From positions 147,936 through 211,935 of the forward strand of contig QOPD01000001.1 in assembly GCA_003331605.1 (NCBI GenBank): 64,000 nt of DNA, written 5' to 3'. Positions 13,714-14,098 of this stretch are shown piece by piece. Each line of letters starts with the position of its first letter. Position 1 is the first letter of the stretch. The notes below the pieces were generated by a model. It saw only the letters and a program-made list of their open reading frames with translations. It was not told where the DNA came from and made no database searches. The stretch comes from SAR86 cluster bacterium (GTDB lineage: Bacteria; Pseudomonadota; Gammaproteobacteria; Magnimaribacterales; TMED112). A program made the position numbers and the translations under genes.

Positions 13714-13714
13714 A

Positions 13715-13741
13715 AAAAGGCACCAGGAACAGGTGCCTTTT
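13715..13741. terminator. Intrinsic terminator between GST and the small ORF; strongest on the minus strand
   Basis: Perfect stem AAAAGGCACC-(7 nt)-GGTGCCTTTT. The plus-strand A-run upstream gives a long U-tail on the minus-strand transcript. Confidence 0.85.
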
Positions 13742-13768
13742 CAAAATGCTTAAACTAAGCAATACCAA

Positions 13769-13900
13769 TTAGTGGGCCTTAGATTTTTCTTTAATCAAAA
13801 GATTTTTCTGTAAAAACAGATTAAATCGGTACTTTTTAAGCGTTAGCCTTTTATTAGATTTAATAGCAGCTTTATGCTGTATTAATTGCAGATTTGTCAT
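13769..13900 (-). CDS. Unannotated 43-aa basic protein MTNLQLIQHKAAIKSNKRLTLKKYRFNLFLQKNLLIKEKSKAH, downstream of a tandem glutamine riboswitch
   Basis: AAGGAG (13907-13912) lies 6 nt before ATG 13900; stop TAA at 13769-13771; promoter and riboswitch upstream, terminator downstream. Too short for the ORF track. Confidence 0.75.
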   Translation of the reverse strand: MTNLQLIQHKAAIKSNKRLTLKKYRFNLFLQKNLLIKEKSKAH

Positions 13901-13922
13901 AAACATCTCCTTTTAAAAAGAT

Positions 13923-13973
13923 GCGTTCCTTCGGTACCATTACCTACTTCCGTCTTCTTGCGAAGATGAACGA
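13923..13973 (-). ncRNA. glnA-type glutamine riboswitch aptamer (3' copy of tandem 1)
   Basis: UCGUUCAUCUUCGCAAGAAGACGGAAGUAGGUAAUGGUACCGAAGGAACGC: P1 CGUUC/GAACG, P2 UCUUC-GCAA-GAAGA, GGAAGUA junction, P3 GGUA/UACC, GAA E-loop strand. Matches the glnA motif as I recall it; no covariance search run. Confidence 0.85.
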
Positions 13974-13977
13974 GGGT

Positions 13978-14024
13978 ACGTTCCTTCAGCCTTAGCCTAC
14001 TTCCGTCCCTTGCGGGATGAACGA
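13978..14024 (-). ncRNA. glnA-type glutamine riboswitch aptamer (5' copy of tandem 1)
   Basis: UCGUUCAUCCCGCAAGGGACGGAAGUAGGCUAAGGCUGAAGGAACGU: same core, P2 UCCC-GCAA-GGGA, P3 GGC/GCU. Confidence 0.83.
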
Positions 14025-14069
14025 GTAGTCTTTTAACCCATGACAAATGGAGAGAAAATTCCCAATTTC

Positions 14070-14098
14070 AATATACCAAAATGGCCAAAATTTAGCAA
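14070..14098 (-). promoter_or_regulatory. sigma70-like promoter for the riboswitch/small-ORF transcript
   Basis: Minus strand TTGCTA-N17-TATATT with TG of an extended -10. Confidence 0.6.

Follow-up and report, generated by a model that had tools for sequence, protein, structure and literature searches.

The described system closest to the locus analysed here, a tandem of two glutamine-I aptamers (glnA RNA, RF01739) in a 64,000-nucleotide stretch of a SAR86 cluster bacterium genome (contig QOPD01000001.1, positions 147,936 to 211,935; hereafter the window), is the gifB leader of Synechocystis sp. PCC 6803. Glutamine raises the synthesis of IF17 and of a reporter in that system, and C68 together with the nucleotides downstream of it has been postulated to pair with the gifB ribosome-binding site (RBS) (Klähn et al. 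2018, PMC6212724). As far as the accessible papers show, the published platform model for glutamine-I riboswitches has so far consisted of this one Synechocystis sequence and a structural argument. Glutamine-II RNAs (Downstream-peptide, RF01704) of marine picocyanobacteria also sense glutamine and precede small open reading frames (ORFs), and GFP fusions show them to behave as ON switches, presumably at the level of translation through release of the RBS. Two homologous aptamers in series are known from the glycine dual aptamer and from glutamine doublets, 157 of which have been surveyed and were viewed as pseudo-cooperative, with a platform of its own for each aptamer (Sherlock et al. 2022, PMC9481103). 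Glutamine riboswitches in SAR86 are mentioned in passing in the literature, in which we found no description of their expression platforms or of the peptide considered here. We present evidence that a short hairpin between the second aptamer of the tandem and a 43-codon ORF, all on the minus strand, is probably the expression platform of this proximal aptamer and would act as a translational ON switch.

By sequence, both aptamers are bona fide members of RF01739. Each was recovered at full length (model positions 1-53) with a score above the Rfam gathering threshold of 35 bits (Table 1), and each has the three-way junction of P1, P2 and P3 with the conserved ACGGAAGUA and GAAGGAACG junction/E-loop sequences; we infer that the tandem RNA binds glutamine. 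The family is common in the genus and order of the host, and a second RF01739 tandem lies upstream of glnA at 22341-22219. In the Rfam structure line for aptamer 2, CGUUC (13972-13968) is paired with GAACG (13928-13924), and G13924 is therefore the final base of P1, equivalent to G59 of the crystallised RNA. That 61-nucleotide construct ends ...GCAACGCG, its P1 comprises C1-G59 to G5-C55, C60 stands directly 3' of G59, and G22 and G23 are the GG of CGGAAGUA (PMC5393176); the G23-C60 "linchpin" pair is ligand-dependent, and G22 and G23 are disordered without ligand (PMC11477058, PMC5393176). Since C60 adjoins P1 in the construct, C13923 corresponds to the linchpin C, and G13951 and G13950 correspond to G22 and G23; C13923 lies directly 3' of P1 and is able to pair with G13950.

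The minus-strand RNA that follows aptamer 2 is GGAACGCAUCUUUUUAAAAGGAGAUGUUUAUG. Folded alone, the segment 13930-13895 forms a 9-bp hairpin, G13924-U13916 with A13911-U13903, which is both the minimum free energy (MFE) structure and the centroid. Its pairs, from the base upward, are G13924.U13903, C13923-G13904, A13922-U13905, U13921-A13906, C13920-G13907, U13919-A13908, U13918.G13909, U13917.G13910 and U13916-A13911, three of the nine being G.U, and the loop consists of the four nucleotides U13915-A13912. The fold energy is -7.3 kcal/mol (z = -2.86; equalled by 3 of 200 dinucleotide shuffles), the Shine-Dalgarno (SD) sequence AAGGAG is buried in the 3' strand, and the first two nucleotides of the hairpin are the last P1 base, G13924, and the linchpin C13923 of aptamer 2. 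A sequence-only reading of this DNA had proposed an SD-burying hairpin in 13898-13925, a span that covers the hairpin to the start codon, and the present results bear it out: the RNA that it quoted matches the minus strand exactly, the G and C of AACGC that it assigned to the helix are G13924 and C13923 by both the Rfam P1 and the PMC5393176 construct, and its statement that these residues close P1 and form the linchpin pair when glutamine is bound agrees with the G23-C60 literature. Its proposal that the helix competes with the 3' end of the aptamer is upheld as well, by the shared nucleotides and by conservation of the helix, with compensatory changes, across the family.

This arrangement shares with gifB a glnA-type aptamer with the start codon of a small protein at short range, a linchpin C (C68 in gifB, C13923 here) that pairs together with the next nucleotides to the RBS, and a duplex whose melting by glutamine is proposed to turn translation on; the mechanism is not new but equals the published gifB model. 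As in a gifB-type platform, no intrinsic terminator precedes the start codon, which stands within tens of nucleotides of the aptamer, at a distance of 23 nucleotides from P1 of aptamer 2. Transcription termination is ruled out as the read-out, as no terminator-like site is present between the aptamer and the ORF. The two systems differ in the helix and its loop (CAUCU/AGAUG with 4 nucleotides here, CGCCUC/GAGGCG with 20-30 nucleotides there), in the strength of the helix, which is weaker here (-6.8 versus about -9 to -15 kcal/mol), in the number of aptamers (two versus one), and in the host, here a SAR86 gammaproteobacterium that is heterotrophic and lacks GlnE and P-II; the product is not of the DUF4278/IF17 type, and the locus lies outside the gifB/IF17 regulon. 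Glutamine-II RNAs differ in having a pseudoknot fold, and RF01739 only was detected at this locus, RF01704 not. In the add adenine riboswitch of Vibrio vulnificus, also a translational ON switch, some nucleotides belong both to the aptamer with its ligand and to the helix that sequesters the SD, so that binding frees the SD, and a whole P1 strand is exchanged. Here the overlap is limited to the linchpin C and the terminal G.U, and the switch would consist of one long-range pair plus presumed steric effects.

For a comparative view of the helix, aptamers were gathered from relatives, from a set with one genome per species, and from metagenomes, where a scan gave 120 hits, mostly chance matches without an aptamer, and left 24 real platforms after filtering. 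Platforms were kept if the start codon lay within about 55 nucleotides of P1, which yielded 75 distinct short-spacer platforms; cyanobacteria, Pelagibacteraceae, SAR86 and further gammaproteobacteria are represented, as are unassigned contigs. When the RNA is folded from the final P1 base to the AUG, the MFE structure pairs the linchpin C in 74 of the 75, and the helix that opens there closes on the SD region; blocking the G and the C costs 2.8 kcal/mol on average over this set, and 3.9 kcal/mol at the locus described here. The helices fall into compensated sequence classes across lineages: CGCCUC/GAGGCG is found in most cyanobacteria and CAUCU/AGAUG at this locus and in several SAR86 relatives, further classes are CGUCUC/GAGGCG, CGCUU/GAGCG, CACCUC/GAGGUG, CACCU/GGGUG, CACU/AGUG and CUUCU/AGGAG, and the metagenomes add CACUC/GAGUG, CAAUCU/AGAUUG and CAUCUCUU/AGGAGGUG.

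We scored six pairs, the linchpin C and five further nucleotides with the SD flank, in a structure-blind MAFFT alignment of 56 platforms. Standard pairs made up 90.8%, 22 cells were changed on both sides (G-C to A-U, C-G to U-A), and the linchpin C-G pair was present in all 56 rows. The observed pairing or covariation was reached by none of 500 shuffles, which ignore phylogeny, and registers slid by 1-3 columns gave pairing of only 36-63%. Exchanging tails and SD flanks among nine sequence classes likewise gave no match to the real pairing in 5000 permutations, in which phylogeny was not factored in. On closer range, between the host genome (G000) and G028, which carries an orthologue of the peptide ORF, the hairpin region has substitutions in its loop only, and third positions of the ORF differ at 13 of 43 codons. 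Judged by these sequence comparisons, the helix is more than a product of chance, and they indicate that it is the general, conserved design of the translational ON switches of this family.

In the mechanism that we propose, C13923 and the following AUCUUUU would pair with the SD region AGGAGAUG when glutamine is absent; the helix would probably stack on P1, AAGGAG would be kept out of reach of the 30S subunit, and little peptide would be made. When glutamine is bound by aptamer 2, G13950, the equivalent of G23, would insert at the base of P1 and form a Watson-Crick pair with C13923. This capture would deprive a helix otherwise made of A-U and G.U pairs of its only strong closing pair, and with it of more than half of its stability; the junction residues would then occupy the place where the hairpin would stack, the SD would open more often, and the 43-amino-acid peptide would be translated.

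Nearest-neighbour calculations give the C13923-G13904 pair more than half of the stability of the helix. At 37 C the energy of the isolated hairpin rises from -6.8 to -2.9 kcal/mol when G13924 and C13923 are blocked; the corresponding change is from -9.6 to -5.1 at 25 C and from -11.9 to -6.9 at 15 C. With aptamer 2 imposed, opening AGGAG in the isolated hairpin costs 3.3 instead of 7.1 kcal/mol. For the full leader (14062-13880), the cost of opening the SD drops from 5.6 to 3.4 kcal/mol once the helices of aptamer 2 are enforced and neither its junction nor its linchpin is available. These models agree in sign with the ON direction, which, like the size of the effect, we infer. Such a comparison of constrained and unconstrained folds had been suggested in the sequence-only reading, and its expectation held in sign, the opening cost falling as predicted, but not in extent, as a 7-bp remnant keeps the SD from being freed.

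The direction also follows from the architecture. Some nucleotides serve both in the bound aptamer and in the helix, and because no third element exists, the ligand can only weaken sequestration; the ON direction is favoured by this sharing, by the homologous design of gifB, and by the segregation of platforms with gene classes. Direct anti-SD platforms precede 79 distinct complete ORFs, every one of which encodes 31-119 amino acids (median 56). Genes for glutamine synthetase (GS) I (468 amino acids), GS II-like proteins (326-336), Amt (428) and porin-like proteins (198) have leaders of 60-150 nucleotides with other structures (loci L001-L291), further large genes of nitrogen assimilation likewise have longer leaders of different design, and the aptamers before glnA and the porin-like gene in the host's own genome have GCGCC or GCGGC tails and leaders of 74-89 nucleotides. 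The modelled sign and the gifB analogy thus support the earlier proposal that glutamine frees the SD and that the peptide is made when glutamine is high, as for gifB; complete release of the SD is not found in the model.

Other leaders of the family show different arrangements. The porin-like leaders of congeners (L042, L044, L046) and of the host's own genome (C4, L001) reuse an SD hairpin, GCAUUUUU/AAGGAGAUGU, behind AGCGC, a segment that can pair with the CGCGCU tail of the aptamer and would be an anti-anti-SD. Withdrawing the tail raises the modelled cost of opening the SD from 0.5 to 3.7, from 0.9 to 4.4 and from 2.5 to 3.7 kcal/mol, and such inverse (OFF) logic was seen in only three of nine of these leaders. 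In glnA-type leaders (22219-22134 on the minus strand; L063, L072, L106, L051), the linchpin C and two or three further nucleotides covary with nucleotides past a conserved GUUAAAC, as read by eye (CGAC/GUCG, CGUG/CACG, CCG/CGG, CCA/UGG), and the GUUAAAC can itself pair with a downstream GUUUAAC; by its sequence, the glnA-type leader may be a pseudoknotted or two-state platform.

Several observations weigh against an ON switch of this kind at the locus. The AUCUUUU/AGGAGAU remnant persists as seven base pairs when P1 is enforced and C13923 blocked, leaving the SD mostly paired, and the modelled effect of about 2-4 kcal/mol is not all-or-none. A long-range helix covers the AUG in every full-leader state and could dominate, aptamer 1 carries a U at the linchpin position, and the CAUCU/AGAUG class has no compensatory change of its own, its members differing only in the loop (UAAA, UAAU, UAAC) or at the top pair, so that covariation is seen between classes only. 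Because the remnant is still predicted, full release of the SD needs more than competition between secondary structures; we dropped simple mutually exclusive structures as the full explanation, as constraint folding leaves the SD paired, and within this model one has to suppose that steric or tertiary effects contribute. According to the literature, glutamine binding causes a short helix joined to P1 to melt, which by analogy could be the missing factor in this RNA.

The residual hairpin, present in all constrained folds, would also suit a constitutive attenuator or stability element on which glutamine has little effect, with regulation, if any, residing elsewhere, in RNA decay or in the long-range helix. 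In this helix, AUUUGUCAU (14049-14041) is a perfect 9-bp complement of AUGACAAAU (13900-13892), and their pairing would enclose both aptamers and bury the start codon; the candidate helix is part of the MFE in every state of the full leader, a complement of at least 9 bp arises in only 65 of 5000 shuffles, and its 5' strand lies within 30 nucleotides of leader (14055-14026) that are free of substitutions relative to G028 despite the third-position differences in the ORF. The helix is, however, missing from all other peptide loci examined, outside the genus, and as a genus-restricted feature it was rejected as a conserved trait of peptide-type leaders. If the SD-sequestering helix were independent of the aptamer, nothing would explain why 74 of 75 platforms have it begin at the linchpin C and why the SD flank covaries with it, and the gifB architecture, which is homologous, is responsive to glutamine in vivo; we consider a constitutive role improbable. 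Still less probable is an OFF switch, in which a P1 stabilised by glutamine would stack coaxially on the hairpin, sequester the SD and restrict the peptide to low glutamine. The hairpin abuts P1 without a spacer, which makes such stacking geometrically possible, and tertiary effects lie beyond nearest-neighbour scoring; the ligand, however, withdraws C13923 and places the equivalents of G22 and G23 at the base of P1, binding has been described as melting the helix next to P1, and gifB, of the same design, is ON. Genes that glutamine would be expected to shut off (GS, Amt, porin) never use the direct design, and some porin leaders insert the anti-anti-SD, which inverts the response in the model.

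The hairpin could, lastly, be a by-product of chance, the conserved aptamer tail GCAUC happening to stand beside a strong SD. The Rfam consensus does end in GCAuc, purine-rich SDs pair readily with U/C-rich tails, and the single-sequence z-score is modest. Yet GGAGAUG occurs at only 12 of 465 genomic GGAG-N5-9-AUG sites, which rules out that the 3' strand of the hairpin is merely the standard RBS of this genome, the other three linchpin-C aptamers of the genome have the GCGCC or GCGGC tails and long leaders mentioned above, and tails and SD flanks covary across classes, by which a chance origin is effectively refuted; we regard it as very improbable indeed. A translational ON switch operated by aptamer 2 thus remains the explanation that we favour.

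Read from the sequence, the transcription unit runs from promoter through two aptamers, hairpin and 43-codon ORF to terminator (Table 1), and we read it as monocistronic because of the promoter-like site at 14098-14070 and the sole terminator-like site 3' of the ORF. The AUG within the 3' strand of the hairpin cannot be a start because it abuts the SD. At the 5' end of the leader, the segment 14062-14049 differs from that of L035-L037 by three substitutions (14062, 14059 and 14056), all within a small 5'-terminal stem-loop whose stem is GGA...UCC here and GAGAGAU/AUCUCUC in the relatives; to judge from its sequence, it may be a stabilising hairpin.

Table 1 Features of the glutamine-I tandem and its peptide gene, in coordinates of the window
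Feature	Position	Strand	Basis or remark
Predicted sigma-70 promoter TTGCTA-17-TATATT with TG extension; transcription start at about 14062	14070..14098	-	sequence prediction
5' leader segment AUUUGUCAU, complement of AUGACAAAU (13900-13892)	14041..14049	-	candidate long-range helix
Aptamer 1, RF01739, 56.8 bits; U13978 at the linchpin-C position	13975..14025	-	Rfam covariance model
Inter-aptamer linker UACCCU, 6 nucleotides	13973..13978	-	UACC can pair with GGUA 13944-13941
Aptamer 2, RF01739, 61.4 bits; P1 = C13972-C13968 with G13928-G13924	13920..13974	-	Rfam covariance model
Linchpin C (C60 equivalent); partner G13904 (hairpin) or G13950 (glutamine-bound aptamer)	13923	-	folding and crystal-construct mapping
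Anti-SD, 5' strand of hairpin, GCAUCUUUU	13916..13924	-	fold
3' strand of hairpin, AGGAGAUGU, with SD core and in-frame non-functional AUG 13906-13904	13903..13911	-	fold
SD AAGGAG	13912-13907	-	sequence
Start codon AUG, 6 nucleotides past the SD	13898..13900	-	sequence
ORF of 43-amino-acid basic peptide MTNLQLIQHKAAIKSNKRLTLKKYRFNLFLQKNLLIKEKSKAH	13769..13900	-	reading frame and codon comparison with G028
Predicted intrinsic terminator ending the monocistronic unit	13714..13742	-	terminator prediction

The tandem arrangement raises the question of what aptamer 1 contributes. At the linchpin position C is found in 218 of 219 distinct glnA-type aptamers, aptamer 1 with U13978 being the sole exception, and since a U allows only a G.U "linchpin", its affinity for glutamine or its role may differ. 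The P1 helices of the two aptamers are only 6 nucleotides apart (13978-13973) and no platform was found that belongs to aptamer 1 itself; in this close spacing, and in that only aptamer 2 contacts the expression platform, the locus differs from the doublets surveyed by Sherlock et al. One tentative extension of the ON-switch explanation, which we think rather unlikely here, is a two-step relay in which aptamer 2 would serve as the platform of aptamer 1: the linker, which begins at the linchpin position of aptamer 1, would pair with the 5' half of P3 of aptamer 2, so that aptamer 2 could fold and the SD be released only after aptamer 1 has bound glutamine, giving cooperativity. It draws on tight tandems before small peptides (L052, L068, L078, L087, L137, L154, L228, L144, L250 and L255), whose linkers of 6-9 nucleotides have no room for a separate platform and in which the linker CAUUAUC is complementary over 7 bp to GGUAAUG in the 5' half of P3 of aptamer 2, with compensated variants CAUUG/CAAUG (L228) and CAUUAC/GUAAUG (L144). 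The linker duplex averages -4.9 kcal/mol with P3 of aptamer 2 and -0.8 with P3 of aptamer 1, and none of 2000 shuffles of the links did as well. The linker of the locus described here gives only four base pairs, however (UACC with GGUA, 13978-13975 with 13944-13941), in another register and possibly by chance, the CAUUAUC/GGUAAUG cassette may have been inherited as one unit and have undergone few independent changes, and aptamer 1 here has the deviant U.

A wider version of the relay, on which we would place somewhat less weight still, is a domino in which each linchpin of a tight tandem starts an alternative helix, the linchpin and linker of aptamer 1 acting on P3 of aptamer 2 as an "anti-aptamer" and the linchpin and tail of aptamer 2 as the anti-SD. 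Glutamine would first bind aptamer 1, aptamer 2 would then fold and bind it in turn, and the SD would open last; in this SAR86 lineage the domino would have diverged (U13978, UACC/GGUA) and would drive a lineage-specific basic peptide in place of GlnE/P-II control of glutamine synthetase. If true, it would provide real cooperativity from two aptamers and one platform, unlike the "pseudo-cooperative" arrangement of the literature. A different layout is seen in SAR11-type tandems before amt (L059, L074, L076, L085 and about 20 more alphaproteobacterial loci), where an AUG about 30 nucleotides past aptamer 2 lies in a GCAUG to which the aptamer 1 tail CAUGC is complementary, and the scanned amt ORF starts about 90 nucleotides past aptamer 2. 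By sequence, the linchpin tail of the first aptamer may act directly on that AUG.

Codon comparison with the G028 orthologue revealed 13 synonymous differences and one non-synonymous difference in the peptide ORF, from which it follows that the ORF is translated and under purifying selection; on this sequence evidence it is a real coding gene. No Pfam family matched the peptide at E <= 1 and there was no match to DUF4278, and a search of 5.8 billion proteins returned only two clusters of homologues, both of near-identical peptides. Other SAR86-type peptides of 52-54 amino acids, ending in KK(D/E)(V/L/M)FFPYYL, stand behind an identical GCAUCUUUUUAAAAGGAGAUG platform (L052, L053, L068, L137, L255). 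The window peptide aligns weakly with the N-terminal two thirds of these FFPYYL peptides (17-28% identity) and is without their C-terminus. The host assembly is 0.94 Mb long and 97.5% complete, and it gave no match to GlnE (PF03710) or P-II (PF00543) in searches that were positive in 3 and 13 of 14 control genomes, respectively. A role of the peptide as a regulator of glutamine synthetase is plausible by analogy with IF17, and the lack of GlnE and P-II in this genome makes it a candidate for nitrogen-assimilation control.

The value added to the gifB model lies in family-wide comparative support and in an unusual tandem context: 75 platforms now provide covarying helices that nearly always start at the linchpin C. 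They extend the model from cyanobacteria to abundant marine heterotrophs, SAR86 and SAR11-related bacteria. The weak, A-U-rich hairpin of this locus offers a handy natural test of regulation delivered by one long-range base pair. If the ON direction suggested here is right, the locus points to a micro-protein induced by glutamine that is a candidate for regulating nitrogen assimilation in SAR86.

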